This document shows, piece after piece, positions 28,308-55,256 of a stretch of 64,000 bases of DNA. The notes beneath the pieces are model-generated. The model was not told the DNA's origin and did not search any database. It worked only from the letters and a program-made list of their open reading frames with translations. Position 1 is the stretch's first letter; every line of letters starts with the position of its first letter. Source of the stretch: Meyerozyma guilliermondii (Eukaryota); the NCBI GenBank assembly GCA_051546255.1, contig CP128816.1:1488001-1552000 (forward strand), given 5' to 3'. The translations under genes were made by a program, and so were the position numbers.

Positions 28308-28386
28308 GTCACGTGCCAGATTGTCCACCGCGGTTAGAGAAAAATTACTCAATTGGTGAGTCATTACCGTAACTGAGTATATAAAA
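28308..28386 (+). promoter_or_regulatory. ARG3 promoter: Cbf1-type GTCACGTG (28308), Gcn4 site TGAGTCA (28357-28363), TATA box (28378)
   Basis: Exact motif matches upstream of an amino-acid biosynthesis gene. Confidence 0.7.
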
Positions 28387-34615: not shown

Positions 34616-37609
34616 ATGACAGATTGCGTTATACGATCACCACGCATCGATGAGTTAGAGCACTACGGTCCTGTAACTGCACTCAGAAACCATAATAAGA
34701 TCCTCTTTTGTGGCTGCGGCCCTATACTAAAGGTTTTCGACATAAGCTCATCGCATCCTCAACTTGTCTTTCAACAAAAAGTACTTTCACGCAACAAAAT
34801 ACATACCATAGCGATCACTGACGATGGAAAGCAATTATTCGCAGGTGGTGGAAGATCATTTGTTATCATTGATATCGAAAATATCCTCAAAGGAGAGAAC
34901 AATGTATTCAAAGAGAAGGCAATTGATGAATGGATCGTTAGTGGTGAGTTCCTCAATCAGAACACGTTGTTAATACTTACAGCACACAATACCGTGTATG
35001 AGATTAACACACAATCATTTGAGCTGAAGAACACCATGGATTGTGGTGAAAAATCGATTCTTTATAGTGGAACCATTCGCATAGATACCAAAGGTCGAGT
35101 GCTCATTGGGGCTGGAACTGTGATGGAAGGAGTGATACTATGGGACTATAAGACAGGCAAAATCTTACACAATCTCACAGAACATGAGGGTTCGATTTTC
35201 GGAATAAAAATTGACCCCTCTGGAAAGTTTGCAGTTTCTTGCTCAGATGATCGTTCTATCAAACTCTACGACGTTCAACTGGGTAACATTTTAGCCACAG
35301 GCTGGGGCCATGGATCTCGGATTTGGGGCCTTGAGTTTTTCTCTGTTGGTGAAACACTTCATGTTTTTAGCCACGGAGAAGATACGACGGCTCGTCTTTG
35401 GAAATATCAACTAGGAAACACTTCCTTGGATCAGGTTCATATATGGGAAAATTGCCATTCAGGAAAACACATTTGGTCTGGATGTGTGTCTATGGAGTCA
35501 AGTGCTTGTATCACAGGTGGTGCTGATGGAAGAGTACGATTACTTGACATGGTTCCTTACCTATCCAAATCAACACTCCACTATAGCCTTGAAGATATTG
35601 CAGGGTACACTGGAGTACATTTCGAAAAAAATGAAATTATCAAGCAGTTTTTTGAACTTGAAGATGGTTTAGTGTCTATTACATCACATGGAACGATATT
35701 CTCATACTCATACTCGTCCCACAATTGGCGAGAAATAAAGTTGACATCAGATGAAAAACAAAAGTTCATGAACTTTTCTATCATGAGAGGCTTTAAAGAT
35801 GCTGGTACGGTAGCTATTACCACTCGCGTGGGCGACATTCTTCTTCTTCAGTTTCAGAGCATCAATGAAACCCCCACCAAAATCTGGATCGAAGACGAAT
35901 ATCTTCAGTCGAGCAAAGTCACAAACTTGTTGAGTTTTGGTTGTAATGGTCAATATTATTTATTGACAGACTGCCCAAACCCCAAAACACCTTTCGTTCT
36001 TCGAGAGTTCCACCTTAGCTCTGGAGAATTCAGACTCAAGAGCACCACTTGCTTAAGTCAACCTCAGCAAACCAGCTTCACCACAACTTGCATGGTTGTT
36101 GATAGCGTTAATAACTGGCTCATTTTGGCCTCTCGTTATGTTACTATCGCAATCTACGACCTTGGCTCTACTGAGAACCAACCCACTCCACTTTCAGCTA
36201 TCTTCAAGAAAATTACCTCTGGTGATACGATTACCTCATTATCAACTTTAATGGCTGCGAAAAATTGTTCAACTTTACTTCTCACCGTTAGAGACGGAGC
36301 ATATGCAACAATCACATTAAGAAAAGACAACACACTCACCTACGACATTGACCTTGAAAACAAGCTTTCCAGAGGCTTTATCGAAGGTGGCTTTTTCGAC
36401 GGCGACAACTTGATAGTATATGGATTCAAATCATCGTCATTTTTTATCTGGAATGAAACACAACAATTGGAATTAATGAGTGTTGCATGCGGAGGAGCAC
36501 ACAGGCAATGGGAGCTCTACAGAAACGAGTCCGAATACAAGTTCGTATACATGAATAAGTCTACCATCTATTTTGCTGATGCCTCAAAGAGATTTGAAAA
36601 TAACGGTGTCTTAGTTGACGGAACTCATGGAAGAGAAATTCGGGATATTGCTGTTTCAAAGTGGGAATCCGGAAACAACTATCGAGATGTAATCACAGCA
36701 TCTGAAGACACAACCTTACGATACGGTAGATTGTTCCCCAATGGTAAAGTTCATGTCTATTGGACATTGAACAAACATGTTTCCGGGCTTCAGAAAGTCA
36801 AGTTTATCGACAGCAATCTTGTAGGAAGTTGCGCTGCCAATGAAGAATTCATTGTCTGGAAACTTTCAGGCACAAAGATTCCTAGCATCGCAGACTTTGC
36901 AGTCTTACCAACTGAACATAAGAACCCTGATCTTCGTATCATGGATTTCGACTCTATTGAGGTCGATGGAGAGCTCTTGATTGCAACAGTTTATTCAGAC
37001 TCTCAAATAAAGGTGTGGAAATTTGATGAAAAACCTCAAAAATTCACTCTCGTTCTCGAAGGAACATACACCACTTGTTGCTTGCTTCACGTTAAGTTTC
37101 TTCGAGTAGCAGGAAACATCTTCCTCACTACAGCTGCTACAGATGGTCATTTGGCAATTTGGAAAATGCCCAACTTGTCAAACAAAGCAAATTTACCGGC
37201 TCCATTGATCAAGCAACAAATTCACCAGAATTCTATTAAAGGTTTGGCATTTGAAGAGGTCACCGGCGATCATTATCGGGTCTTCACAGGTGGTGATGAC
37301 AACTCTTTGATTGTTTCGGATCTCAAATTTGGATCTGAGGAGATTTCGTTATCGCTGTTAGATTTCCAAGAATCAGCAGCATCCTCAACAATAACCTCAG
37401 TGACTCTTATTGGAACTGCCAAAGTAATGACAGTTTCTGTGGACCAGATAGTGAGACTCTGGAGCTTTGAATCAGACAAGTTGGTGTGCATCTCGGAAAC
37501 TTATACCACTATTGCTGATACTGGCTGTTCAGAAGCGACGGAAATCGGAAACCTGTTGATGCTTCTTGTGGGCGGATCGGGACTCAGCACTTTTAAAGTT
37601 TCAAATTAA
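34616..37609 (+). CDS. RTT10: WD40 protein Rtt10/Trm734 (WDR6), partner of the tRNA 2'-O-methylase Trm7
   Basis: 997 aa with motifs EKSILYSG, HEGSIF, SCSDDRSI, GWGHGSRIW, CGGAHRQW, HGREIRD and DLRIMDFD. Confidence 0.9.
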   Translation: MTDCVIRSPRIDELEHYGPVTALRNHNKILFCGCGPILKVFDISSSHPQLVFQQKVLSRNKIHTIAITDDGKQLFAGGGRSFVIIDIENILKGENNVFKEKAIDEWIVSGEFLNQNTLLILTAHNTVYEINTQSFELKNTMDCGEKSILYSGTIRIDTKGRVLIGAGTVMEGVILWDYKTGKILHNLTEHEGSIFGIKIDPSGKFAVSCSDDRSIKLYDVQLGNILATGWGHGSRIWGLEFFSVGETLHVFSHGEDTTARLWKYQLGNTSLDQVHIWENCHSGKHIWSGCVSMESSACITGGADGRVRLLDMVPYLSKSTLHYSLEDIAGYTGVHFEKNEIIKQFFELEDGLVSITSHGTIFSYSYSSHNWREIKLTSDEKQKFMNFSIMRGFKDAGTVAITTRVGDILLLQFQSINETPTKIWIEDEYLQSSKVTNLLSFGCNGQYYLLTDCPNPKTPFVLREFHLSSGEFRLKSTTCLSQPQQTSFTTTCMVVDSVNNWLILASRYVTIAIYDLGSTENQPTPLSAIFKKITSGDTITSLSTLMAAKNCSTLLLTVRDGAYATITLRKDNTLTYDIDLENKLSRGFIEGGFFDGDNLIVYGFKSSSFFIWNETQQLELMSVACGGAHRQWELYRNESEYKFVYMNKSTIYFADASKRFENNGVLVDGTHGREIRDIAVSKWESGNNYRDVITASEDTTLRYGRLFPNGKVHVYWTLNKHVSGLQKVKFIDSNLVGSCAANEEFIVWKLSGTKIPSIADFAVLPTEHKNPDLRIMDFDSIEVDGELLIATVYSDSQIKVWKFDEKPQKFTLVLEGTYTTCCLLHVKFLRVAGNIFLTTAATDGHLAIWKMPNLSNKANLPAPLIKQQIHQNSIKGLAFEEVTGDHYRVFTGGDDNSLIVSDLKFGSEEISLSLLDFQESAASSTITSVTLIGTAKVMTVSVDQIVRLWSFESDKLVCISETYTTIADTGCSEATEIGNLLMLLVGGSGLSTFKVSN

Positions 37610-37670: not shown

Positions 37671-40600
37671 TTATAATTCCAACAAACGCAAGTTGAAAAC
37701 TGTGTCGTTGATAACTTGTTCTTCATCAATGATAGGACTCGTTGAACTTCCGAATGGCTCAATTGGTCTCTTTGTACATTTCAACAACATCTCTTCATTC
37801 TCCTTCAAGATGTTCTCGAAACCTATGGTATCCTTCGACACCTTGTATTCAACCTTGACGTCATCTGTGGTGTTCAAGCCAGCCTTCTTTCTCAATCTTT
37901 GAATACGGTTGATCAACTCTCTGGCCAAGCCTTCATTTTGCAATTCAGGGTACATGTTGACATCCAAGATGATGAGAATGTCTTGCTGGGATCTAGACTC
38001 ATGTCCACTAGCTGCCAGAGCAGCTGGTAATCCTCTTTGAACTTGCAAATCTTCGGTGACTAATTCAATTCCGTCGACGGTCAATTTACCAGATTTAGCA
38101 AAAGCCTTGACTTCGTCTGAACTTACCGATGGTAAAGCAGCCTTGACCTTCTTGGCATCCTTCTTCAATTTCTTACCAAGAACTGGCCAGTCAGCCACCA
38201 CGGTATATTCGACACCATACTTTTCCTCATCGGAGGAGATTACAATGTCTCTGACATTCAATTCCTCGATGATATAGTCTTTCAAAGATTCAACATCGCT
38301 CAAGTAGTCAGGGTCAGAGTGTAAGATGACAAGTTCCTTCAAAGGAGTCTTCAAAGAGATCATCTTCTTTTCTCTGATGTTTCTTCCCAAATCAATAACC
38401 TTTTGCATTCTGCCAACAGCGGTCTCAATCTTCTCATCAAAAAGTTCCTTTCTTTCAGTAGGGTACGACATGAAGTGAATGGACCTGGTATCTTTCTCCT
38501 TAGGGTTGACACTCAAAGAGATCAAATCTTCTTCGGTGAAGTAAACCTTAAGTCGTTGGTAAATACCATCGGCAAGGAAAGGAGTGAAAGGAGCCATTGC
38601 ACGAGACAAGGTGAGTAAAGCCTCCGACAAAGTGTTGAGTGCAACTCTTGTGTCTTCCTTGTCTCCACTCAAACCCTTGAGACGTCTACGGTTGAACCGA
38701 ATGTACCAGTTAGTCAAGTCGTCAATCAAGGACAACAACTTGGGAACAACGGTGTATAACCTGTAAGCCTGCATCTCTTTGTGAATGAATGCAATTAAGG
38801 ATTGAAGAGATGCCATTAACCATTTGTCCATTACGTTGGTTGAGAACAATTTCGAGTTGTAGACAAACTTCTCACCATTGTCTTTCTGGTAAATGTTGGC
38901 AGCATCATTAAAGAACTTGAAGGAGTTATACCAAGGTAATAAGACACTTGAGACCACCTCTCTCACACCTTCTTCCTTGAACTTCAAGGTTTCAGCTCTA
39001 GCAACGGGTGACTTGATCATATACAATCTCAATGCGTCGGCACCGTACTCCTTCAAGACTATATTAGGGTCTGGGTAGTTTTTCAATCTCTTAGACATTT
39101 TCTTACCATCAGCAGCCAGCACAATACCGGTGACAATGACGTTTTGGTAAGGGGCAGTATTGAACAAGTGTGTACCCAAGACAGTCAAGGTATAGAACCA
39201 ACCTCTTGTTTGATCCAAACCTTCAGAGATGAAGTTGGCGGGGAATGAGTTCATGAAAAGTTCCTTATTCTCAAAAGGATAATGTCTCGAAGCGTAAGGC
39301 ATTGAACCGGACTCAAACCAACAATCAAACACCTCTTCAACTCTCTTCAAGTTGCCCTTACCTTGCTTGGAGGGAATGGTAACATCATCGATACTGTCTC
39401 TGTGGATATCAGTGATATCATCTCTTCCAGATAATTCCCTCAATTCTTCAATAGAGCCAACGCAAACGATTTCTTCAAAGTCGTCACTAACCCAGAGTGG
39501 AATTGGAGTACCCCAGTATCTGTTTCTGGAAACATTCCAATCTCTAGCGTTGGAAATCCAGTTGGAAAACCGCTTTTCCTTGATGTTGGATGGCACCCAG
39601 TTTGTCCTCTCGACATTCTTCAACATATCTGGGACAATATCAGTCACACGAACAAACCAAGCTGGCACAGCTCTGTACAAAAGAGGTGTATCAGATCTCC
39701 AACAGAATGGGTACGAGTGCTTGATTTGGGTGTTCATCAAAATTCTTCCATCTTCTGTCAATCTTTTGATGATGAGCTTGTCTGCATCCTTGACATACAC
39801 ACCATGGAAATCAGAAACTTCAGCAGTGAAGCGACCATTGTCATCCACTGGATTGGGTGGAGTTCTCTTCTCGTTGATAACACCAGCGTTAGCGGCAGCA
39901 TTGAAATCTTCCTCACCAAATGCTGGAGATTGATGGACAATACCAGTACCAGAGTCTGCAGTAACGTAGTCTGCACCAATAACCTGGAAGCCATGGTCCT
40001 TAAAGCTGTCGTAAAAGTAGTTGAAAAGTGGCTTATACTTGAGTCCAACTAAGTCTTTACCTTTGATTTTCTCCACGACCTTATACTTGGCGGCAGCAGG
40101 CTTCTTGTAGACGGCATTTAACAAAGACTCCAACAAAATGAAATGCTTCTGCTTCTCTTCATCAAAGATTTTGACGTACTCAAAGTCAGGATTAACACAC
40201 AACGCGATGTTAGAAGGCAATGTCCAAGGGGTGGTGGTCCATGCAATCAACCAAGTGTTCTCATCGTCGATAAGAGGAAAAGATACGGTGACTGCAGGAT
40301 CATTGACATCTTTATAGTTTTGCTGAGCTTCAAAATTGGACAAAGGGGTAGTCAAACCAGTAGAGTATGGCATGACACGCAATCCTTTGTAGACAGCATC
40401 CTTCTTGTACAACTCTTTGAAAGCCCACCACACAGATTCCATAAACTCTGGGTACAAAGTCTTGTAATCGTTATCCATATCGATCCACCTTCCAATTCTT
40501 GTCACAGTTCTGCGCCATTCATCGGCGTATCTCATCACAATCGCCCTACACTCAGCATTGTATTTGTCAATACCCATCTTCATGACATCGTGTTTACCGG

Positions 40601-40904
40601 TAATACCCAACTTTTTGTCAATCTCGTACTCGATAGGTAACCCATGAGTATCCCATCCAAATCTTCTCACCACATGGTGTCCATTCATTGTAGCATACCT
40701 TGGAATGATATCTTTCACTGTAGAAGCCAAAAGATGTCCATAGTGAGGTGTACCAGTAGCAAAAGGAGGACCGTCAAAGAATGCAAAAGGTGGAAAATCT
40801 TTTGTCAATTCCAAGGAACGTTGAAAAGCATCCACCTCATTCCACTGGTCAATAACCTTTTCTTCTTCCCTAGGGAAGCTAAAATGACCCAGTTCTTCAG
40901 CCAT
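37671..40904 (-). CDS. ILS1: Cytosolic isoleucyl-tRNA synthetase
   Basis: DGPPFATGTPHYGH (HIGH motif), WTTTPWTLP, EGLDQTRGWFY and KMSKR. The conserved start MAEELGHFSFPREEE is at 40904; an upstream in-frame ATG lies at 41018. Confidence 0.97.
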   Translation of the reverse strand: MAEELGHFSFPREEEKVIDQWNEVDAFQRSLELTKDFPPFAFFDGPPFATGTPHYGHLLASTVKDIIPRYATMNGHHVVRRFGWDTHGLPIEYEIDKKLGITGKHDVMKMGIDKYNAECRAIVMRYADEWRRTVTRIGRWIDMDNDYKTLYPEFMESVWWAFKELYKKDAVYKGLRVMPYSTGLTTPLSNFEAQQNYKDVNDPAVTVSFPLIDDENTWLIAWTTTPWTLPSNIALCVNPDFEYVKIFDEEKQKHFILLESLLNAVYKKPAAAKYKVVEKIKGKDLVGLKYKPLFNYFYDSFKDHGFQVIGADYVTADSGTGIVHQSPAFGEEDFNAAANAGVINEKRTPPNPVDDNGRFTAEVSDFHGVYVKDADKLIIKRLTEDGRILMNTQIKHSYPFCWRSDTPLLYRAVPAWFVRVTDIVPDMLKNVERTNWVPSNIKEKRFSNWISNARDWNVSRNRYWGTPIPLWVSDDFEEIVCVGSIEELRELSGRDDITDIHRDSIDDVTIPSKQGKGNLKRVEEVFDCWFESGSMPYASRHYPFENKELFMNSFPANFISEGLDQTRGWFYTLTVLGTHLFNTAPYQNVIVTGIVLAADGKKMSKRLKNYPDPNIVLKEYGADALRLYMIKSPVARAETLKFKEEGVREVVSSVLLPWYNSFKFFNDAANIYQKDNGEKFVYNSKLFSTNVMDKWLMASLQSLIAFIHKEMQAYRLYTVVPKLLSLIDDLTNWYIRFNRRRLKGLSGDKEDTRVALNTLSEALLTLSRAMAPFTPFLADGIYQRLKVYFTEEDLISLSVNPKEKDTRSIHFMSYPTERKELFDEKIETAVGRMQKVIDLGRNIREKKMISLKTPLKELVILHSDPDYLSDVESLKDYIIEELNVRDIVISSDEEKYGVEYTVVADWPVLGKKLKKDAKKVKAALPSVSSDEVKAFAKSGKLTVDGIELVTEDLQVQRGLPAALAASGHESRSQQDILIILDVNMYPELQNEGLARELINRIQRLRKKAGLNTTDDVKVEYKVSKDTIGFENILKENEEMLLKCTKRPIEPFGSSTSPIIDEEQVINDTVFNLRLLEL

Positions 40905-41095
40905 TACTAACCAAAAGTTGTTTGTGGAAGTCCAAGTCAGACGATTATAACTTGTCTGGCGGTGACTAATTGAAAAAATTTGCAGCAGATGCAGTACCGC
41001 ACTAAATAATCTCAGCATATCGGCACCATAGATTGAACGGCGCGAAGGTGACTCGACCGTAGCTATGCTTAATGAGTCAATTATTTAGGCACTGA
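40905..41095. promoter_or_regulatory. Bidirectional ILS1/TilS promoter with Gcn4-type sites and an RRPE-like element
   Basis: TGACTAA at 40963, TGAAAAAATTT at 40971, TGACTC at 41049 and TGAGTCA at 41073-41079. Confidence 0.7.
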
Positions 41096-42511
41096 ATGAT
41101 TACGATAGCACAATTCCAGAACTGCTTTCATGCGTGTTTTGGGGCAACGACCGTTAAGGCGCCAAGACGTCTAGCCATCGCATTATCTGGTGGTGTGGAT
41201 TCGATGTGTTTGGCTTATCTTCTTTCTCAGTACAAGCAGGTGTACGAGCCAAGCTTGGAGCTCCATTCTATAACCATAGACCATGGATACAGGTCTGATT
41301 CGGAAATTGAGGCCCAGAAAGTTGCGCAAGTGGTGCAAAACTGGGGTATATTACCGTCGGTCTCTCGTTTGAAATATAGTTGCAACCCTGCAAAAATTTC
41401 CAATTTCGAAGAAGTAGCCCGTACGATGCGGTACGCCGAGTTCGAAAGATTTTGCCGTGGAAATAACATTGAAGGACTTTTGGTGGCACACAACTTGGAC
41501 GACCAAATTGAAACTTTTATCCAACGGCTCCGTCAGAATTCGTCAATATTTGGACTTGCAGGCTTAAAGAGAGCTACCACACTTCCAGTTGCAACTAATG
41601 AGCCGAATGAGAGACCAATTCCTCTCTTTAGGCCTCTTTTGCAATTTCCAAAGTCTGAATTGATCAGCACTTGCATTGCGAATAAGATACAGTGGTTCGA
41701 AGACTCAACAAACCAAGACGCTAATTTGACTGAGCGCAACTTCTGGCGCTCCGAACTAAAGAAACCCGATGACGAGTCAGTTATTAATCGAGATCAGTTC
41801 TTGCAAACTTTTCTGGAAGTGGAAACTGTGGTCAACGAGCTTCGAAAGAAGGTTAAAGCGCTCAAACTTCATGTTTTTGGTACCGAGGAATGCGAATATG
41901 CTCGTAACGGAACATTGAGCTTTCAGATTCAGTACTCAGTACTTTCCAACCTTTCTGCTATGGTATTCAGTCGTTTTCTTTTTCAAATATTGCATCCTAT
42001 ATCTGCGTCTCGCGATTACCACTGGATGTACGCAAAGCTAGAACGGCATGCTGTACCAAGAATCATGAAGCATTTTGTTGTATCTCAGAACAGAGTAGCA
42101 TTGCGCCTAACATATCTCAATATTCTATGGAATATTGAACGAATTGAAGATACCTTACATTTCCATTTTGAAAGGCAGCCTATACCTCAGAATGAGTATG
42201 CTCATATATCAACCAGCATAAATCCAGACGGAAAGAGTACACTTTTTGACAATAGATTCTGGATAAGACTAAAGATTGCTACTAAGAACAAAGTCAGTGT
42301 GGAACCTTATGATCCAAAAAGACATAAAAAAATCATTCGTCAAGCCTTTCCTGAATTGAAGAAGTTTTCCAACTTATCGAAATCCCTTAAACTGACCCCA
42401 ATTGTTATTGCACAAGATATTATGGCAGTTCCGGTTCTCGATAAGGTCAAGGCGAACATTCCAGCTGACGTGGAAGTGCAACTAAAAGCTAACTTATTTA
42501 CGAACTCGTAA
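41096..42511 (+). CDS. tRNA(Ile)-lysidine synthetase family (TilS/MesJ) PP-loop ATPase
   Basis: Motifs LAIALSGGVDSM, IDHGYR, EEVAR..RY, AHNLDDQIET, GLAGL, RPLL..PK and WFEDSTN. Confidence 0.9.
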   Translation: MITIAQFQNCFHACFGATTVKAPRRLAIALSGGVDSMCLAYLLSQYKQVYEPSLELHSITIDHGYRSDSEIEAQKVAQVVQNWGILPSVSRLKYSCNPAKISNFEEVARTMRYAEFERFCRGNNIEGLLVAHNLDDQIETFIQRLRQNSSIFGLAGLKRATTLPVATNEPNERPIPLFRPLLQFPKSELISTCIANKIQWFEDSTNQDANLTERNFWRSELKKPDDESVINRDQFLQTFLEVETVVNELRKKVKALKLHVFGTEECEYARNGTLSFQIQYSVLSNLSAMVFSRFLFQILHPISASRDYHWMYAKLERHAVPRIMKHFVVSQNRVALRLTYLNILWNIERIEDTLHFHFERQPIPQNEYAHISTSINPDGKSTLFDNRFWIRLKIATKNKVSVEPYDPKRHKKIIRQAFPELKKFSNLSKSLKLTPIVIAQDIMAVPVLDKVKANIPADVEVQLKANLFTNS

Positions 42512-42851: not shown

Positions 42852-45800
42852 ATGTTCACTCCCCACCAAATCAACTCGTCCACTCCAAGGACTCAAAAAC
42901 GTTCTCGGCATGGTGGCCGACTGAGTCAATTGCTTCGTGTTTCTCATCAACAAGTCAAGTTGGACGTGGATATAGAACGCAAAAGTGTTTCCGGAGTGAC
43001 AGATATTGCAATAGTACCGTCATCAAACTCGTTACGTACGATTAAACTCGATTGTCGTGAGATGAAAATCTCCAGCATCACCGTCAACAAGCGCAAGGTC
43101 AATTATATCCATCAAGACCTTTTGTATATTAACAACCCCGAAGAATTCGAAAGTAAGGTGAACTCGTCATCGATAGATCTCTTTGACTTGTACTCAAATG
43201 AGTTGACCATCCATCAGCACCATCTAATCAGACAAAAACTCAACTACTTATTCGGCGATGTCAACTTTGATCCTCGAGAACCATCAACCGAAGTTCAGAA
43301 CGGAAACACCGAGGAGCTAAAGATATTATTGCCAGAAAATTTCAAGTTTGAACAAACAGACCGCTATAATAGTCCTGAAGTGCACCACCACGACTCTGGC
43401 ACTCCAATGCATCTAAGAAAATCCACATTCAGCTCAGATTACAGTCCAATCATGGTAAGGATCAAATATACCTTGAAGAACCCTCAGAATGGTTTGAAAT
43501 TTGTATCTGGAGATCACTTGGACGTCAAAAAATGGCATGTGTACACAACAAATTCAGAGTTCAACATATCGACATCATCCTGGGTTCCGTGCATAGATAA
43601 CCTCTGGGATAAGTGCTCCTGGACCATAGAATTGGACATTCCCCGGAGCACGAAAGAGTTCGAAAATAGAACCCTAGAATCTAATAATCATGAAGCAAAT
43701 GGTGATGATGACAATGCAATGAACAAGGATGAAGAAGAAAATGAAAAAGAACAAGAAGATGGAGACGATGAGAATAGTAATGAAGAAAACGAAAACATGC
43801 ATGACATTAATAACAACTTGGATGATGATGAGTATCTTGATATGGTTGTGTGTGCCGGCGACATAGACAACTACAAAGAATTACCACATCCATCAAAGCG
43901 AGACAGAAAGCTAGTCTCGTGGTCCATATTCAACCCGATCAGCGCTCATCATGTTGGCTGGTGTCTCGGACCATTTCAATCTTACACAGTGTCGAGCGAT
44001 TCCAATGATGTCGTTTTAGACGATGATTTTGGGGCCGCTGGGGCTGAAGTGGAAAGAGACTCAACAAATGCTCCTTTGACAATATATGCCCTTCAGGATG
44101 ATTTAGAGGATGCAAAGAACACATCCGCAATCATACGTGGTGCCTTGGATTTCTTCCTGCGAGAGTTTGGATCGTTTCCCTTCACATCTTATGCTGTGAC
44201 ATTTGTACACGATTTGCCAATTGAGGTGAACAACTTTGCAGGACTCAGCGTGATTAGTGACACAATGCTCTTTCCCGCCGATATCATTGAGCCCATGTTC
44301 ACCAATACAGAAATATTAATCGATACGCTCGCGGAACAGTGGTCTGGAATTAATATTACTCCCCAACAGTTCGGCGATTTCTGGGTGACTATTGGTATTT
44401 CCAAGTTCATGTCCCTCAGCTACATTCGGCATCTTATGGGACAAAATGAGTACAGGTTTAGAATCAAGATCAAAAAGGCACAAGTAGCTGATGAGGACGT
44501 TGGCAAGAAGCCCTTGGCTTATCAATTTTACCAGTATCCTTTATCTACTTCAGATTTATCTTTTGTTTCATTAAAAGCTCCTGTCGTCTTATACATTTTG
44601 GACAAGAGAATGACCAAAACAGACAAGTCCTTCGGGCTTTCCAGAGTGCTTCCAAAAATTTTCCTTCAGGCAATGTCTGGTGATTTACAAAATAGCACCT
44701 TGTCTACATTACACTTCCAGTACGTCTGCGAGAAAGTGAATCGCAACAAGCTCGAGTCTTTTTTTAAGCAGTGGGTCTTCAATGCTGGTGTACCACTTTT
44801 CCTGGTTGCTCAACGGTTTAACAAGAAAAGGTCAATCATTGAAATGCAAATTCGTCAAATACAACTGCAAATTATTCGAAAATCAAAACCCAACTCCAAC
44901 AACTTTATGGAAGACAGCATAGCCTACCTCGATGATGAACCTTCATTTTTGGTGCAGCCTGTATTTACCGGTCCCATGACAATAAGGATTCACGAAGCAA
45001 ACGGTACTCCATATGAGCATATCATTGATCTCAAACATGAAACGTCAAAGCTTGACATCCAGTATAATACTAAATTTAGAAGGATGAAGAAGAAAACGGG
45101 AGACGAGGTGCACGAGACTGTTTCTTCATTCAAACAACTTGGTGATATCTTACAAACCAAAGCTGAGATGGAGGAGTGGAACTTGGTAGAGTGGATCAAG
45201 GATGAAGAAGATCCACTGTTCAATGACGCATTTGAGTGGTTAAGAGTGGATGCAGACTTCGAATGGATTTCCAAGATGAGTGTGAAGCAACCGGACTATA
45301 TGTTTGCTTCGCAGCTTCAATATGATCGCGACGTTGAGGCTCAGTATGAGGCCGTCAGATATTTCGCCACGAGAGACAAACCGAACCGCAACTACTGTAC
45401 CGTCCTCACTAGGACTGTTATGGATAGCAGATATTACTACGGTGTCAGAATTGCAGCTGCTCGTGCATTGGCTGGCTTTTCAAAAACCAATAACTTGTTT
45501 ATTGGTCTTGAATATCTAATGAAGATTTTCAAGACGCTCTATTGCTTTCCAGAAAGTAATGTTCCCAAAACGAACGATTTCAACGATTTAGCAAGCTATT
45601 TCCTTAAGAAGGAAATGATATCGATATTTGCTACCATTCGTGATGATGATGGCAATTCACCCACCGAAGTTAAGCGCTTCCTTTTAAGCTTGTTGAAGTA
45701 TAATGACAACTCCAACAACGATTATCAGGATGGGTTTTACGTTGCTGCTTTGATCAAAGCATTGACGAGCTGTATCATCATAACTGGTGATCTTCGAGAC

Positions 45801-47657
45801 ATTCCGGATGTTTTCGACAACTCAAAACAGAAATTTGTCGACGACGCTCTTGTCGAGATCAATCGTCTCCACAAACTAGATGAGTGGGTACCTTCGTACC
45901 ATAACATGATATCTGTAGTTTGCTTGCAACTGAAGGTCCAGCTTGCTGTGCACGGCTATTATGAGTTGCCTTTTGAGGATTTACTTCCTTATACGTTGGG
46001 CAAATTCCCACTTGATGTGCGTGTTGAAGCTTTCAGAGGGCTTTTCCTCCTTGGAGGGCTAAGAAATGCTGCCGTCATGAAATACTTTTTGACAACTTGT
46101 TTGCTCACCAGGGAAAACTCCAGGTTTAAGCGCGGCCTAGTCGAAGCATTATGTTCTGCGGTGGCTTCCGTGGCTACGGGACCCGCCCCATCCACCTTGG
46201 ATGATCCTGAGTTCAATTTCTATCAGGCACTTGAAGGTGAACGTCTGAAAATTGGAACCAACAAGACAAACATGATGATAATCGATGACGGGATGGACCT
46301 GGCCAGCTCGCGCAAGGAAATGTTTGCGAAATCTTCAATAGAGGGTGCAATTGATCTCTTGCGGGCCAAGTTTGCGCAAGGTGAAGGATTGAAGAACACT
46401 TTATGGGAATTGCTTCACAATTCTCTTTTGAGCCTTTATGAGCGCCGAAGAATATTCAACTTGTGCCAAATTCTTTACGAGGAGAAGGATCAATTTTTGG
46501 TCAGATTACCCGTGCACAATGTACCTCTTGAAGACTTTAATAAGAAGATTGTGGCCAAGTACATTGGCGATAATACCGTGGTCATCAAGAGGGAAGGAAG
46601 ATTCAAGATTCAATTGGCACGTCTGATAAGTGTGGAGCACTCTGACAAGAAAAAAAGAAGACACTCTGCAGTTGAAAACGATGACGAACTTGAAGATAAT
46701 AAGTCTCGTGAAAAACGACCTATTTTACGATTCACAACCAAGCCTAAACCTGAAGAGGTTCCAACTCCTGTACAAGTAGAAGAGGTGGTTCCTGAGCTCC
46801 AAAGAATAGGTTTAGTTGCTGTTGAAGGCACCCTGGTTAACATCAAACTTTCGTCAAGGACGCTTCGTAGTTTGGCGAAAGTTAGGTCTGCCCCTGCTCC
46901 TGTTGCGAATACCCCATCAGTGGTATCAACTTATCACCCAGTTACATTGAAATTCGAGCGAGAAGTCTCCAGAAGGATTATACATCACTTTGTAAATGGT
47001 GCTTCGAACAAGAGATATGTCAAGATTTTCACTAAGGAGGGCCGTGCAGAAGTATCATCCAAACCATACACGAAATCGACAGGTGGAAAAGCTACAGAGT
47101 CACAAGACGAGAAACATGAAATTGCTGTATCAGAAACTACTGTCAATGAAGAAGCTGGAACTGAACAAGAGCGAGAAGAGCCATCAACTAAGACACCAGA
47201 CGACGGAAAAGTTGAGAAGCCAGACAATCAAGACCAGAAATCAGATGAAGAAAAAGGTCAGAATCTAGATGAAGGTGAAACTCAAAAATCAAATGAACTT
47301 AAGGCTCAGAAACCAGACGAGCAAACCAATGAAGCAGACGAAGTTAAAGGTCCGAAACCAGAAGAACATGCTGTTACTGAGCCAGATCGGTCAGAGAAAC
47401 CCGCTCTTGAGAGCAAACCTTTGAGCAGGTCGGTGAGTCCCTTTGATACTGGGCCAGCCCAAACTAAAGGTTATCGTAAGAAGAAGAAAGAGGTATACAT
47501 TCATAATGGAAGTCCGAGTCCCGCTACGAATTCGGATGAAAATAACTCGAAGAGCGGATCCGATAAGGTAGAAGAGACTAAATCATCTGGTACCGAAAAC
47601 GGAGAAAAACTGGCTCCTAAGCCTAAACTTAAGCTCAAGTTGAGCCTCAAAAAATAA
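42852..47657 (+). CDS. TAF2: TFIID subunit Taf2
   Basis: Aminopeptidase-like fold motifs WVPCIDN, LKAPVVLYILDKR, FTGPMTIRIHE, EWLRVDADFEW and LKYNDNS; basic C-terminus. Confidence 0.95.
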   Translation: MFTPHQINSSTPRTQKRSRHGGRLSQLLRVSHQQVKLDVDIERKSVSGVTDIAIVPSSNSLRTIKLDCREMKISSITVNKRKVNYIHQDLLYINNPEEFESKVNSSSIDLFDLYSNELTIHQHHLIRQKLNYLFGDVNFDPREPSTEVQNGNTEELKILLPENFKFEQTDRYNSPEVHHHDSGTPMHLRKSTFSSDYSPIMVRIKYTLKNPQNGLKFVSGDHLDVKKWHVYTTNSEFNISTSSWVPCIDNLWDKCSWTIELDIPRSTKEFENRTLESNNHEANGDDDNAMNKDEEENEKEQEDGDDENSNEENENMHDINNNLDDDEYLDMVVCAGDIDNYKELPHPSKRDRKLVSWSIFNPISAHHVGWCLGPFQSYTVSSDSNDVVLDDDFGAAGAEVERDSTNAPLTIYALQDDLEDAKNTSAIIRGALDFFLREFGSFPFTSYAVTFVHDLPIEVNNFAGLSVISDTMLFPADIIEPMFTNTEILIDTLAEQWSGINITPQQFGDFWVTIGISKFMSLSYIRHLMGQNEYRFRIKIKKAQVADEDVGKKPLAYQFYQYPLSTSDLSFVSLKAPVVLYILDKRMTKTDKSFGLSRVLPKIFLQAMSGDLQNSTLSTLHFQYVCEKVNRNKLESFFKQWVFNAGVPLFLVAQRFNKKRSIIEMQIRQIQLQIIRKSKPNSNNFMEDSIAYLDDEPSFLVQPVFTGPMTIRIHEANGTPYEHIIDLKHETSKLDIQYNTKFRRMKKKTGDEVHETVSSFKQLGDILQTKAEMEEWNLVEWIKDEEDPLFNDAFEWLRVDADFEWISKMSVKQPDYMFASQLQYDRDVEAQYEAVRYFATRDKPNRNYCTVLTRTVMDSRYYYGVRIAAARALAGFSKTNNLFIGLEYLMKIFKTLYCFPESNVPKTNDFNDLASYFLKKEMISIFATIRDDDGNSPTEVKRFLLSLLKYNDNSNNDYQDGFYVAALIKALTSCIIITGDLRDIPDVFDNSKQKFVDDALVEINRLHKLDEWVPSYHNMISVVCLQLKVQLAVHGYYELPFEDLLPYTLGKFPLDVRVEAFRGLFLLGGLRNAAVMKYFLTTCLLTRENSRFKRGLVEALCSAVASVATGPAPSTLDDPEFNFYQALEGERLKIGTNKTNMMIIDDGMDLASSRKEMFAKSSIEGAIDLLRAKFAQGEGLKNTLWELLHNSLLSLYERRRIFNLCQILYEEKDQFLVRLPVHNVPLEDFNKKIVAKYIGDNTVVIKREGRFKIQLARLISVEHSDKKKRRHSAVENDDELEDNKSREKRPILRFTTKPKPEEVPTPVQVEEVVPELQRIGLVAVEGTLVNIKLSSRTLRSLAKVRSAPAPVANTPSVVSTYHPVTLKFEREVSRRIIHHFVNGASNKRYVKIFTKEGRAEVSSKPYTKSTGGKATESQDEKHEIAVSETTVNEEAGTEQEREEPSTKTPDDGKVEKPDNQDQKSDEEKGQNLDEGETQKSNELKAQKPDEQTNEADEVKGPKPEEHAVTEPDRSEKPALESKPLSRSVSPFDTGPAQTKGYRKKKKEVYIHNGSPSPATNSDENNSKSGSDKVEETKSSGTENGEKLAPKPKLKLKLSLKK

Positions 47658-47848
47658 TCAATTGACCAAACGGAGCCGAAGTTACTCCTCATAGATCATA
47701 GAATAACGAAGACATGACGAAGAATATTGTAGAATTAGTTCACTTCAGTAGGTCCCAGTGGTCCTGTACATCGCACAATAACCACACAGGTGCAATGGGT
47801 GTGGCTGGTGAAGTTGGGAATCTCTAAGCATACAGCTCTGGTCCTAGC

Positions 47849-50032
47849 ATGTCCTACATTCCTCCATATAGCATTCCCAAATCCAGTGCTACCACTTCAA
47901 CCACAAACACCAATACAACCTCTGAATCTGTTAGCAAAGTGGCTCAAGATAATAAGATTGTTAAACCTGATATACCACCTGATAATGGAATACAAACTCA
48001 ACTATTAAGAGGTATGTTGGGCACTTCCGAGTCTCCCAGGCTACAAAGCGGCTCGCCAGGAGTATCAGATGCTGCTCCGGCAGTTGTGACTGTGGAAGAC
48101 AAAGGACAATTTAAAACAGCGACCGACAGCGGAACGAAGGACTTGGTCAGTTTGTTTGACAAGTTTGATGTGAGCAAAGAGATAGGAGAGGACAGCAAGG
48201 ACGACGAAGAGAACAAGGAAAACGACAGGCAAGACAAAGAGAGCAACAAAGACAACAAAGAGGACGATAAAGAGCACACGGAAATGGAACCGGCTTTGGA
48301 TACTGTTGCCTCTGAGGGAAAAGACGAAACCACAATTGACGAAGATCCTACAGCTCTCAACCGACCGGGTATATCTTCGATTGGCTCTGATGACGATGAA
48401 TCCACACACGAAAAAGCAGAGGAAAAGAATGAGTCAGAAGACAAAAACGAGCACCTGACGCCAGGGACCACCAGTAATACGCCCCCATTGATGGTTCAAA
48501 AGGCTCTGGCCATGACAATACAACCATATGATCCCTTTTCAAGCACAGCGAGCCCAGACCCAGAACAGGCTCAGCAGAAAGACTTATCTGACATAACGGG
48601 CGCCATAGAGCAAACTTCCATTAAAGAATTCGAGTTACCGAAAGAAACACTTGATAACGAGTTGCTGTCTGATGTGGCAGCCGAAAGCAACAAAGCTGGC
48701 AATGAAGCATCGGGCCCGGAGGAGGAGCATCGCATGTCTTCAACCAACGGAGTGGATGCTAATGAGCAGTATAAGCAGTCGCATAAACCATTTGATTTTG
48801 ACCAATTTTTAGTGCATTTACGCAAGAAGTCGGCCGATCCAATAGTCCGATTCATTCGTTCCTTCTTGCTCAATTTCAACCGCCAAGCTCACGCATTATC
48901 TTACGAGCAGAAAATCAAGATCATTTCCGACTTCAAACAATTCATGAACGAGAAATTTGCATTATATGAACCCTTTTCATCTATGGACACGATAGACCTA
49001 GAAAATTCAAGAGAAGGATTGGAAAAATTGATTATGAACAGACTATACGACTTGACTTTTCCTCCAAATGTTGCAAAGTCTCTTGGTAACCGCGAGGCCG
49101 AGTCCACGTACAAAGACTTGGAAGAAGATGAAGAATTTGCTCGTCAGCTAGAAAAGTTTAGCTGGGTCAATGGCTCACATTTGGACATTGATCTAGAGAG
49201 TCTTTCACGACTTCGAACGCAAGTTTCTGACGATGATTCTAACTTTTTGGACTACGCTATTCAGGAACTCAACAAGATCAATGATTATAGAGCTCCACGA
49301 GATAAGATAATTTGCATTCTCAATTCATGCAAAATCATTTTCAGTTTCCTTAAAGTGAACAAACAAGAGACGAGTGCCGATTCATTTATTCCATTATTGA
49401 TTCTAGTGATCATTAAAGCAAAGACTAGCCATTTCATCAGCAACATACGGTATATTGAAAATTATCGAGGTGAAGAATGGCTCTCGCACGGAGAAACCAG
49501 CTATTACCTCTCGTCGGTGCAGGGAGCGGTGGGTTTTATCTCTAAATTGGACTTTGAGCAACTCAAGATTGACAAGAAGGAATACGATGCACATCTTGAA
49601 GCCTGGCAAGCGGAAGAAACGAGGCTAAACAAGCAAAAACTGGCTACTACTAAACCCAAGGCTAGCCTTGAGACACGATTGCAACAGCCAAGGCCACAGC
49701 ATGCTGCTCAAAATACTCAAACATCACCAAGTCAGAGCTTCTCACCTTCTTCGGTTCTTCTTACTAGTGCGGAAATGGTGTCGAAGTCAATATCTAATTT
49801 TTTGTCGCCGTCACCCACAGAGGAACCACAAGTGGCTCAAAGAAGACAGCGTGAACTGAATCACCAAGCAGAACCACCCATTGACCCAGAAACCATGAAA
49901 TCCATCTACGACAATTTGACGGAAATTTTCCCCAACATAGACTCCACGGTTCTCAAAGACTTGATAGTGATCAAAAAAGGCAATCAAGACGAATGCGTAG
50001 AAGCATGTTTACAATTGGTCAACGAGGTCTGA
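47849..50032 (+). CDS. VPS9: Rab5 GEF Vps9 with C-terminal CUE domain
   Basis: VPS9 motifs RAPRDKIICILN, SADSFIP and GETSYYLSS; CUE motif IFPNID. Confidence 0.94.
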   Translation: MSYIPPYSIPKSSATTSTTNTNTTSESVSKVAQDNKIVKPDIPPDNGIQTQLLRGMLGTSESPRLQSGSPGVSDAAPAVVTVEDKGQFKTATDSGTKDLVSLFDKFDVSKEIGEDSKDDEENKENDRQDKESNKDNKEDDKEHTEMEPALDTVASEGKDETTIDEDPTALNRPGISSIGSDDDESTHEKAEEKNESEDKNEHLTPGTTSNTPPLMVQKALAMTIQPYDPFSSTASPDPEQAQQKDLSDITGAIEQTSIKEFELPKETLDNELLSDVAAESNKAGNEASGPEEEHRMSSTNGVDANEQYKQSHKPFDFDQFLVHLRKKSADPIVRFIRSFLLNFNRQAHALSYEQKIKIISDFKQFMNEKFALYEPFSSMDTIDLENSREGLEKLIMNRLYDLTFPPNVAKSLGNREAESTYKDLEEDEEFARQLEKFSWVNGSHLDIDLESLSRLRTQVSDDDSNFLDYAIQELNKINDYRAPRDKIICILNSCKIIFSFLKVNKQETSADSFIPLLILVIIKAKTSHFISNIRYIENYRGEEWLSHGETSYYLSSVQGAVGFISKLDFEQLKIDKKEYDAHLEAWQAEETRLNKQKLATTKPKASLETRLQQPRPQHAAQNTQTSPSQSFSPSSVLLTSAEMVSKSISNFLSPSPTEEPQVAQRRQRELNHQAEPPIDPETMKSIYDNLTEIFPNIDSTVLKDLIVIKKGNQDECVEACLQLVNEV

Positions 50033-52421: not shown

Positions 52422-55061
52422 CTACTGCTTACTCAATTTTGCCAATGTGTCGTAAAGAACCTTCAGCTGAGGTGAACTGATATCATATCCTTTCTTGGTC
52501 TGGAGCTGGGCCAAAAGAGTAGAAACCTGGGTTGAAGGTATCGACAGAGAAGTCGGTGCATATTCAGAAACATTGGAGGCCAAATTATACGGTGTTGCCT
52601 GCTGGTATGGAAGAGGTTGCTGTAGTGGTTGTTGTTGCAGTTGCTGAAGTGGATGCTGAGGTGGATGTTGAAATGGTTGCTGAGGTTGTTGTTGTAATGG
52701 TTGTTGGAGTGGTTGTTGGAGTGGTTGTTGGAGTGGTTGTTGGAGTGGTTGTTGGAGTGGTTGTTGGAGTGGTTGTTGGAGTGGTTGTTGGAGTGGTTGT
52801 TGGAGTGGTTGTTGGAGTGGTTGTTGGAGTGGTTGTTGGAGTGGTTGTTGGAGTGGTTGTTGGAGTGGTTGTTGGAGTGGTTGTTGGAGTGGTTGTTGGA
52901 GTGGTTGTTGGAGTGGTAGTTGTGGTTGTTGCGGTTGTTGCTGTTGTTGTTGCAAAAACATTATCATCTGTTGCATTGTCGTTGGATCTAAATTTTGCAA
53001 TGCCTGCAACAACTGAGTTTGCCCCGAGGGTTGCACCTGGTTAAAGTTCTGATACGGAGTAGTAGCCACCGGAATATTAGAGTTCACGCTCGGTGGTGGA
53101 GCATACTGCCCCTGCGGAGGAGCGCCGAATGGTTGCACGGAAGGTTTTTGGATGGTGGGGTTATATTGGAAACCTGGAGTTCCATTCTGATATGTTTGAT
53201 GATGGTATTGATTTGGCTGTGAATAACCAACATTTGCATGCTGATTCCCAATTGGTGGACCCTGAGGTGCTTGAGGTTGCTGAGCTTGGTTGTTAATTTT
53301 AGGAGTAGGAGAATAAGACTTTTGACGAGGACTGTAAGTAGTCGGTCCATACATGTCAGCAAACAGGGATTTGTGACCTTTCAGATCTCCAGAGCGAAGC
53401 AGAGCTGCATTTCTGGAACTTCTAACTCTTGAAGTCGTGTCATTTCCTCCTCTATCCTTTTTGATGCTTTGGTATATTGTTTGTGGTGCTGGTTGTGGTG
53501 CGGCCTGTGGTGCTGGTTCCGAAGCTGGTTCTGAAGCTGGTTCTGGCGCTGGCTCTGGCTCGACTGTGGTAGACTTTGAGGATGAGTTTTGAATGACTTC
53601 TACTGCCACAGTAGGTTCAATACCTGCGTATTCGTCGAACCTTATTCCATCGTCATTGGTCTTCTCAAATACTTGTAAGTCCACAGCATGTTCTTTAACA
53701 ATACATGCACTCCGAACACCAGAATATGCAACCTCACTGATAAGTTCGCTCAAGTCCTCATCTTCAATATCTTCCACCTGGAAAGTAATACCGGTTTCGA
53801 TAAATAGTTGCTTCAACTTCGCAGTATTGTGACCTGACGACTCGTTCGTAACAAATATTTGACATTGAATCGGGCCATCATTTGTTTTTTGTTGCTTCAA
53901 TTCCACATCTTGCTCTTTCACATCTACTTTTTGTCTTTTCATGCCTGGGGGTGTTTCCTCTACCGAACGTTCACGACCGCGAGCTGCTTCCAGATACTTT
54001 TTCCCTGGGAACGCGGGCGTCGCATTTAGTCTCCAATATCTTCCAAACAAAGGAACATCATGCTCCCCTTTAATTGCTTCTTTGCAATCAGCTTCATTAT
54101 GAAAGTGAATAAATGCAAATAAGGAACGATTAGTTACCTCATGCAATTTTCCGTACTGACTGAATATTCGGTAAAGGTCTTTTGCACTTACTGTCGCAGG
54201 AAGATTGCCAACAAACAACCGGATGTCACCCAGTGGTCGATGAATAGACGAAGTGTAGGATTCTTGGTGTTTGAGAAATTCATTGTACGCTAGTTCTTCA
54301 TCCGCAGACATGGGTATGGTTAAATTAGGTCTCCGGCAATATTCATTGTAGGGAATTAAGGGAATGGTATGGTTCCATAACAATGCTGGTTCGTTGAATG
54401 AATAGATTTGGTCGTAATTCATTCGGTCAATTTTTTCAGGTGTGAGGCCTGCAACAAGCTTTACTTTACTTCTCACCAACTCGCCCAAAATTGTCTTTTT
54501 TTGATCAAGCTCACTAAGAGCCTGGAATTCTTTACTTTTCACTAATTTACTTCGCATCACCGCTTCATAAGCTGCGCGAAACTGGATATGGGGATCAACG
54601 TCTATTCGAGAAAATTCAGGTGGGATAATCGGTCTAGGAGGTAATCCAGAGCCGGAAAAAGGCAAACGTACAACTGGTAAAGTGGCTTCAGGATCATACG
54701 AATCGTCATATTTTTCGTCGGCATTTGCTTGGATGTGGTTATTTTGCGGTTCGCGGATCACACTCTTTTCACCATCGTTAATAGTGTTATCGGCGCTTAT
54801 TTGCGTACTTGTAAATGCAGTTTCCGGATCATAATCATCGTCAGAATCAGATCCGGAGTTTGCTAACAATTCTGATGATTCTTTTGCAGTTTTGTAACTT
54901 TCTAAACGTAGTTCGACTTCATCTATTTTCATGTCATTTGCTTCAGGATCAACGCTTTCTGTCAAAGGAGCATCCTTGCTGGTAGACTCGCTCGCTATAT
55001 GAACTTTGTGCTTACCGCCGTTATCTATACTTTGTGGCGTACCCTCCATATGCTGCACCAT
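52422..55061 (-). CDS. NAB3: RRM protein Nab3 (Nrd1-Nab3-Sen1 termination complex) with a Q/P-rich tail, about 879 aa
   Basis: RRM RLFVGNLP...DLYRIFSQYG, acidic N-terminus, Q/P-rich tail ending LYDTLAKL (recalled Nab3 end: LLDSLAKLQK). Start reset to the ATG at 55061 (alternative 55049). Confidence 0.82.
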   Translation of the reverse strand: MVQHMEGTPQSIDNGGKHKVHIASESTSKDAPLTESVDPEANDMKIDEVELRLESYKTAKESSELLANSGSDSDDDYDPETAFTSTQISADNTINDGEKSVIREPQNNHIQANADEKYDDSYDPEATLPVVRLPFSGSGLPPRPIIPPEFSRIDVDPHIQFRAAYEAVMRSKLVKSKEFQALSELDQKKTILGELVRSKVKLVAGLTPEKIDRMNYDQIYSFNEPALLWNHTIPLIPYNEYCRRPNLTIPMSADEELAYNEFLKHQESYTSSIHRPLGDIRLFVGNLPATVSAKDLYRIFSQYGKLHEVTNRSLFAFIHFHNEADCKEAIKGEHDVPLFGRYWRLNATPAFPGKKYLEAARGRERSVEETPPGMKRQKVDVKEQDVELKQQKTNDGPIQCQIFVTNESSGHNTAKLKQLFIETGITFQVEDIEDEDLSELISEVAYSGVRSACIVKEHAVDLQVFEKTNDDGIRFDEYAGIEPTVAVEVIQNSSSKSTTVEPEPAPEPASEPASEPAPQAAPQPAPQTIYQSIKKDRGGNDTTSRVRSSRNAALLRSGDLKGHKSLFADMYGPTTYSPRQKSYSPTPKINNQAQQPQAPQGPPIGNQHANVGYSQPNQYHHQTYQNGTPGFQYNPTIQKPSVQPFGAPPQGQYAPPPSVNSNIPVATTPYQNFNQVQPSGQTQLLQALQNLDPTTMQQMIMFLQQQQQQPQQPQLPLQQPLQQPLQQPLQQPLQQPLQQPLQQPLQQPLQQPLQQPLQQPLQQPLQQPLQQPLQQPLQQPLQQPLQQPLQQQPQQPFQHPPQHPLQQLQQQPLQQPLPYQQATPYNLASNVSEYAPTSLSIPSTQVSTLLAQLQTKKGYDISSPQLKVLYDTLAKLSKQ
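52699..52914 (-). repeat. Perfect coding minisatellite of 18 x 12 bp (CCACTCCAACAA) encoding (PLQQ)n
   Basis: GGTTGTTGGAGT repeated without mismatch over 216 bp on the + strand. Confidence 0.97.
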
Positions 55062-55256
55062 AACGAGCCGAGAAAAAAAAATATGTATTCGTACGGCATA
55101 TAACATCAAGCGAAGTACTTTGACCCCCCCCCCCGCGTAGCGTGGAGGGCGCCAATTGTGCGAGCGGAGTATTCGATGCAACATGCAGTGCTCCGGTGCG
55201 GCGCGTCGACTACTAAAAGGTACTGTGGTCCTGAAATTTTCCACTTCGGAAAAACC

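Follow-up and report, generated by a model that had tools for sequence, protein, structure and literature searches.

Why should a yeast carry, head to head across a short spacer, one gene for an isoleucyl-tRNA synthetase (IleRS) and one for a TilS-type enzyme, which adds lysidine to isoleucine tRNA (tRNA-Ile)? The question is raised by a stretch of the Meyerozyma guilliermondii genome (contig CP128816.1, positions 1,488,001 to 1,552,000, forward strand), 64,000 nucleotides long and hereafter called the window, in whose numbering positions are given unless another contig is named. The initial annotation read the pair, ILS1 and TilS, as a small tRNA-Ile module co-regulated under amino-acid starvation through Gcn4-type sites between the two genes. 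The arrangement of two tRNA-Ile genes is real and conserved, and the enzyme is of a kind already known. Probably, however, the two are neighbours in a conserved block that do separate jobs in separate compartments and do not form a co-regulated module. An intact enzyme, a separate mitochondrial IleRS, a conserved block and the distribution of the Gcn4 motif among synthetase promoters carry this reading.

The assignment of TilS to the TilS/MesJ family is upheld both by profile and by structure. The protein scored 170.1 bits against the N-terminal-domain model TIGR02432 (cut-off 93.6), thiolase models of the TtcA/TtuA/Ncs6 type gave about 20 bits, and the genome has a separate Ncs6-like gene. 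TilS itself is single-copy and intact, with a PP-loop conforming to the SGGXDS motif given in PMC12069591. Sequence matches in the PDB were three in all, the TilS proteins of E. coli (1NI5), Aquifex (1WY5/2E89) and Geobacillus (3A2K), which have the same PP-loop and N-terminal domain and to which the yeast protein is about 19% identical. Residues H132, D136, E139, D203, N206 and R218, which we take to be catalytic, align with Aquifex H133, D137, E140, D191, N194 and R205; none of the six varies among 65 fungal sequences. The predicted model was of high confidence (predicted local distance difference test score, pLDDT, 94.7) and Foldseek ranks 1–6 were all TilS; it superposed on 1NI5 over residues 6–466 (Z 24.9, 401 aligned, root-mean-square deviation (rmsd) 5.9) and on 2E89 over residues 1–357 (Z 24.5, rmsd 3.5). 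TilS is therefore, as judged from sequence and predicted fold, an intact member of a known enzyme type. The C-terminal half (41888–42508) also folds confidently, with a weak likeness to bacterial TilS C-terminal domains: in isolation it had TilS chains at ranks 1, 4 and 5 of 48,161, with low scores (Z 5.7–6.0) tied with PAS domains, and Foldseek returned no match at E≤0.001. The Pfam TilS and TilS_C domains were not detected in the 471-aa protein, and TilS C-terminal Pfam domains are said in PMC7186782 to be absent from eukaryotic TilS.

Most likely TilS serves mitochondrial decoding of AUA as isoleucine (AUA=Ile); import, the substrate tRNA and lysidine formation are what we infer in saying so. 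Fungal TilS homologs are not new, being credited in PMC4558845 to Xavier et al. 2012. In S. pombe, Til1 (SPAC12B10.08c) is a predicted mitochondrial tRNA(Ile)-lysidine synthase, and its gene has been described as an essential nuclear lysidine synthase gene for mitochondrial trnI(cau) (bioRxiv 2022.12.06.519325; PMC3815194); three fission yeasts have lost this gene along with trnI(cau) and their ATA codons (bioRxiv 2022.12.06.519325). A 2026 preprint (PMC13015402) follows the same enzyme across Saccharomycotina, proposes that it is mitochondrial and finds it lost in Saccharomycetales and Saccharomycodales, its accessible text reporting no experiment on the enzyme; PMC9154068 places the change of ATA to Met in Eremothecium and the clade that arose after the whole-genome duplication. 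The mitochondrial DNA (mtDNA) of M. guilliermondii, KC993176, is listed under table 4 in PMC10701893, table 4 being also the default where a CUN change is absent. The proposal that this yeast keeps lysidine-dependent AUA=Ile decoding is thus likely, given the intact TilS and the table 4 listing, but its novelty does not stand, since fungal TilS is already in print.

The partner gene encodes a cytosolic-type enzyme, as the initial annotation cautioned. ILS1 scored 987.6 bits against TIGR00392, is 96.8% identical to a Meyerozyma sp. JA9 protein, and has best homologs named "cytoplasmic" and mostly 1070–1090 aa long. A second IleRS gene (L002, contig C1) encodes a bacterial-type protein of 943 aa with a basic N-terminus (TIGR00392, 769 bits), 32% identical to ILS1, and the presence of this mitochondrial IleRS disposes of the idea that it was lost and that ILS1 does both jobs. 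TilS would then be a nucleus-encoded mitochondrial enzyme that adenylates C34 of an mtDNA-encoded tRNA-Ile(CAU) and adds lysine, and the modified tRNA would be charged by the mitochondrial IleRS and read AUA as isoleucine. ILS1 would be the cytosolic IleRS, with Gcn4 sites present since cytosolic synthetases here commonly carry them, and the pair would persist because a short divergent spacer is seldom disrupted, within a block RTT10-ILS1-TilS-TAF2. Any effect of Gcn4 on TilS would be spill-over, with no meaningful co-induction. That the product of TilS should be charged by a separate IleRS whose gene lacks a Gcn4 site weighs against a tRNA-Ile module. Separately, codon 596 of ILS1 (minus strand, approximately 39117–39119), just before KMSK, is CTG. 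This genome and Meyerozyma sp. JA9 decode it as Ser, and the NCBI-translated homologs have Leu there in 27 of 27 cases; the codon is possibly a site where Ser/Leu ambiguity tunes the synthetase.

Adjacency of ILS1 and TilS is not peculiar to this species but recurs across Serinales and probably also in one Wickerhamomyces-like yeast. Accessions of the two proteins are consecutive in five of six named species (S. coipomensis, S. xylosifermentans, C. railenensis, P. carsonii and H. burtonii); in the sixth, S. stipitis, they are on same-size contigs, yet 392 accessions apart. Lodderomyces TAF2, TilS and ILS1 are P41250/60/70, and TilS and TAF2 are consecutive in Millerozyma and in two Metschnikowia records. 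As a wider proxy for synteny, contigs of exactly equal size in bp were sought between the hit lists of TilS, ILS1 and TAF2. Of 60 TilS clusters (two outside Serinales in the tree), the 44 with a contig of 8–200 kb were used, which left out 7 below and 9 above that range; as each cluster is represented by a single contig and only the best 120 hits enter the lists, counts are lower bounds. The TilS contig was common with ILS1 in at least 20 of the 44, with TAF2 in at least 22 and with both in at least 14, the chance mean being 0.06, and across all 60 clusters there were at least 25 ILS1 and at least 26 TAF2 matches (p=0.83 for the difference). Within Serinales, then, the ILS1-TilS link does not exceed its surrounding block. 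The same block appears intact in C. albicans, where supplement rows of PMC8586148 give the order C6_04500C (TAF2-sized), C6_04510C/orf19.2137, C6_04520W (ILS1), C6_04530C; head-to-head orientation is established in C. albicans and in the M. guilliermondii genome analyzed here. Short-spacer divergent pairs are strongly conserved in fungi generally (PMC2871058).

Outside this group the picture is sparser. [Candida] boidinii has TilS and ILS1 (g2610 and g3228) on two separate contigs, and ILS1 and TAF2 are on separate contigs in Babjeviella and C. arabinofermentans. In S. pombe, til1 presumably does not adjoin the cytosolic IleRS gene. An inherited bacterial ileS-tilS cluster was considered and rejected, ileS being absent from the flanking DNA, in many cases short, of all 155 prokaryotic tilS-like loci; metagenome and prokaryotic-genome scans aimed at yeast loci found only distant prokaryote-type tilS-like loci. 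In 20 of the 36 contig matches between ILS1 and TAF2, TilS was missing from the first hit list, and among these Lodderomyces was a search miss and some others could be true losses of TilS. The adjacency was named in no title or abstract opening found by full-text search, which largely did not cover subscription papers, held no synteny-directed query except orf19.2137 (0 papers) and did not reach the pair table of PMC2871058 or the supplements of PMC13015402, where the pair might be listed, and the words "ILS1", "synteny" and "adjacent" do not occur in the main text of PMC13015402 as accessible.

All three Gcn4-type sites reported earlier in the spacer are where they were placed (TGAGTCA 41073, TGACTC 41049, TGACTAA 40963), and they are not easily ascribed to base composition: in 20,000 dinucleotide shuffles the probability of at least one TGASTCA in the spacer was 0.026 and of at least three TGACT[CA] sites 0.0004. 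Perfect sites number 1,226 in the 10.66-Mb genome, and among the 27 window genes only the ILS1/TilS pair and an ARG3-like ornithine carbamoyltransferase gene, a textbook Gcn4 target, have one within 400 bp upstream (TGAGTCA at 28357–28363, 101 bp before the latter gene). For comparison, 27 other synthetase genes of this genome from five Pfam families (which leave out the Arg, Cys, Ala and His enzymes) were divided into cytosolic and mitochondrial ones according to the composition of their N-termini and to known orthology, and a perfect site was scored within 400 bp of the first ATG. Such sites were present at 8 of 15 other cytosolic versus 0 of 12 mitochondrial promoters (Fisher p=0.003), or at 7 of 14 versus 0 of 12 (p=0.006) when the site common to the asparaginyl- and prolyl-tRNA synthetase genes (AsnRS/ProRS) was counted once; nor was a perfect site found within 400 bp upstream of the mitochondrial IleRS, MTO1-like or SLM3-like genes. 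Because perfect sites are common at cytosolic synthetase promoters and absent from all 12 mitochondrial ones, a site would be expected for ILS1 alone. A co-regulated tRNA-Ile module is accordingly not supported: the mitochondrial IleRS lacks the site, the TAF2 link is as conserved within Serinales, and the site is general at cytosolic synthetases. Also in the spacer, TACTAAC, the canonical branch-point heptamer, abuts the ILS1 ATG (40905–40911, plus strand) with no use found; a 5′ intron extending TilS from it was rejected, as an in-frame TGA directly precedes the TilS ATG and the start is kept across homologs.

Expression was approached by proxy through a published co-expression table of 853 C. 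albicans RNA-seq runs, a compendium from another species that may hold few starvation samples. The TilS candidate there has a median of 16.6 transcripts per million (TPM) and a co-expression degree of 0, about 12-fold below ILS1, which has 208.9 TPM and degree 17. Low level alone does not force a degree of zero, because a lower-expressed neighbour has 86 partners. Co-expression of ILS1 and TilS is not borne out by this proxy. The contrast with the AsnRS/ProRS pair (DED81/YHR020W-type) is informative: that pair too is divergent, in this genome (L178/L183, C7:809710-809901) across a short spacer with a Gcn4 site near one ATG, and in C. albicans as well, but its members are both cytosolic, essential, matched in level (264 and 176 TPM) and rich in partners (degree 90 and 133), unlike the TilS candidate. 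In the accessible RNA-seq supplement of an ILS1-repressed biofilm (PMC6591175) orf19.2137 is absent, a result confounded by promoter replacement.

Several observations weigh against the reading of the pair as mere neighbours. Six of the eight cytosolic sites lie 28–82 bp from the ATG and the perfect site at 41073 lies 23 bp from that of TilS, so close to this range that position does not assign it to ILS1; an argument that the site is too near the TilS ATG to act on TilS fails likewise, as cytosolic synthetases here carry sites 28–46 bp from the ATG. The AsnRS/ProRS spacer (190 bp, one TGACTCA at 28/169) has nearly the same geometry. A cleavable presequence is not evident on TilS, whose first helix is basic and conserved; in most homologs, as in this protein, the start lies about 26 residues ahead of the PP-loop. 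In Meyerozyma mtDNA trnI(cau) is a presumed gene, COX1 being absent from the assembly (10.66 Mb, 8 contigs), which therefore does not include mtDNA. C6_04510C is taken for TilS only by its place in the block and its length (1,452 bp; the TilS protein of C. dubliniensis has 479 aa). In the Wickerhamomyces/Cyberlindnera clade, TilS (P0465) and ILS1 (P0214) are both on 8,304-bp contigs, the 1 of 29 non-Serinales TilS contigs that matches an ILS1 contig (chance about 0.003 per trial at that size; most of the other 28 are uninformative, the same species' ILS1 not being identifiable in the list), and in W. mucosus ILS1 and TAF2 are on different contigs. The ILS1-TilS link may thus be older than the TAF2-TilS link, which is the best evidence for the initial annotation, and functional relatedness is reported to be commoner among divergent pairs that are highly conserved (PMC2871058).

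Some of these points favor, as an alternative, a selected bidirectional promoter from which Gcn4 would drive both genes under starvation and couple cytosolic isoleucine charging to mitochondrial AUA decoding. That there are three Gcn4-type sites where so few are expected, that the geometry resembles that of a pair apparently kept by selection, that adjacency extends across Serinales and probably to Phaffomycetales, and that both genes concern tRNA-Ile, an unlikely coincidence a priori, are all consistent with it. We nonetheless consider it unlikely, since the TAF2 link is equally frequent, the C. albicans candidate has no co-expression partners at a 12-fold lower level, orf19.2137 is missing from the (confounded) biofilm file, no such site was seen at the mitochondrial IleRS gene or at any of the 12 mitochondrial synthetase genes examined, and the link is absent in C. 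boidinii. A bolder form would make the spacer an ancient bidirectional Gcn4 promoter that predated the Serinales-Phaffomycetales split and tied mitochondrial AUA decoding to cytosolic sensing of isoleucine starvation, perhaps with a long mitochondrial ILS1 isoform here, and that came apart in Saccharomycetales when TilS was lost, opening the way to AUA=Met; this is, if anything, slightly more doubtful.

TilS could also have another role or product, either because its substrate tRNA was lost from mtDNA or because lysidine is converted onward to ava2C. The absence of an evident presequence is compatible with this, as is the finding that the C. albicans candidate is non-essential in the GRACE set while til1 is essential in S. 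pombe, and plant organelles and some bacteria do make ava2C (PMC11938285). The same source, in its accessible part, gives ava2C as not observed in yeast, til1 was lost in fission yeasts when trnI(cau) was lost, and the catalytic-domain residues are invariant in the 65 fungal sequences. The C. albicans candidate, annotated "orthologs have mitochondrion localization", took 13 transposon hits in 1,452 bp (freedom index 0.85) compared with 132 in 2,844 bp next door, which suggests a fitness cost and fits a respiratory function. A different role for TilS is on balance very improbable.

Least probable of all, and by a hair less so than a changed role for TilS, is that the pair modifies and charges tRNA-Ile in one compartment, an in-frame ATG at 41018 yielding a mitochondrial ILS1 isoform, since a dedicated mitochondrial IleRS exists. 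The upstream ATG, if used, would cut the spacer to 77 bp and opens a 38-codon extension without acidic residues. Its position recalls the valyl-tRNA synthetase (VAS1-like) gene (L004, C4), in which a second in-frame ATG follows the first after 20 codons, the longer form gaining a presequence-like stretch, and a site lies 69 bp before the first ATG (61 bp at ILS1). Comparable open extensions nevertheless occur at 5% of random intergenic positions, and this one is without counterpart in distant homologs. Only 3 others of 120 ILS1 homologs have an extension of about 20–35 residues before the usual start, of unrelated sequence and in two cases with several acidic residues. Proteins of Meyerozyma 97% identical to ILS1 start at the second ATG, a weak point, as gene callers do likewise for 99.9%-identical copies.

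The features of the locus are collected in Table 1. Divergence of the two ATGs (ILS1 40904, minus strand; TilS 41096, plus strand) over 191 bp is as first described, and the gap is ordinary for the window, on contig C2 of the assembly, where other positive divergent gaps measure 803, 290, 183, 168 and 1116 bp. The statement that RTT10/TRM734 abuts ILS1 is right as to the neighbour, which lies tail-to-tail at 61 bp and has no promoter in common with the pair; the name, which follows established nomenclature, rests on synteny, the product showing nothing but WD40 repeats in Pfam and the syntenic C. albicans gene (C6_04530C, orf19.2143) being described under "endocytic recycling". CTG codons 24 and 436 of TAF2 align with Ser at conserved positions, which together with the near identity of ILS1 to the JA9 protein points to a Meyerozyma-type CUG-Ser yeast (Serinales). 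A Spathaspora record (P0397) joins TAF2 and VPS9 domains, suggesting that the TAF2-VPS9 order (42852–50032) is conserved too. At 52422–55310 (minus strand) is an RRM protein that contains a long stretch of QQPL repeats and whose longest open reading frame (ORF) overlaps the divergent oxidoreductase ORF 55176–56297 by 135 bp; the true starts are probably downstream. Records labelled Naganishia cerealis (P0277, P0292, P0304) are about 99.9% identical to genes here and are probably contaminated or mislabelled assemblies, and budding-yeast ILS1 inside Cerrena zonata (P0276) and Lacticaseibacillus (P0234) records probably has a similar origin in contamination or mislabelling.

Table 1. Features of the ILS1-TilS locus, in window coordinates.
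Feature	Position	Strand	Remarks
WD40 protein, 997 aa, RTT10/TRM734-like	34616..37609	+	ORF; convergent with ILS1
ILS1, cytosolic-type isoleucyl-tRNA synthetase, 1077 aa from conserved start	37671..40904	-	TIGR00392
Divergent ILS1/TilS spacer, 191 bp	40905..41095	.	
In-frame upstream ATG, putative 38-codon ILS1 extension	40905..41018	-	presequence-like: 3 Arg, 10 Ser, no Asp/Glu
TGACTAA, weak Gcn4/AP-1-like site	40963..40969	+	
TGAAAAAATTT, which we take to be an RRPE-like element	40971..40981	+	
TGACTC, half-consensus Gcn4 site	41049..41054	+	
TGAGTCA, perfect Gcn4 consensus	41073..41079	+	distance to ATG: 23 bp (TilS); 175 bp (conserved ILS1 start, from the far edge)
TilS/Til1 tRNA(Ile)-lysidine synthetase, 471 aa, single copy, no evident cleavable presequence	41096..42511	+	
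PP-loop SGGVDS, residues 31-36	41186..41203	+	motif SGGXDS
TAF2, 3′ neighbour of TilS, synteny control	42852..47657	+	

The locus has a practical side, in that replacing the ILS1 promoter in Candida also alters the region upstream of TilS, and caution is warranted in interpreting such strains. Its TilS, a tractable one from a budding yeast, would allow lysidine to be tested for directly in fungal mitochondria for the first time; the cited papers, in their accessible parts, contain no measurement of this kind. If co-induction of the pair were true, it would be a rare regulatory link from cytosolic amino-acid control to the mitochondrial genetic code.

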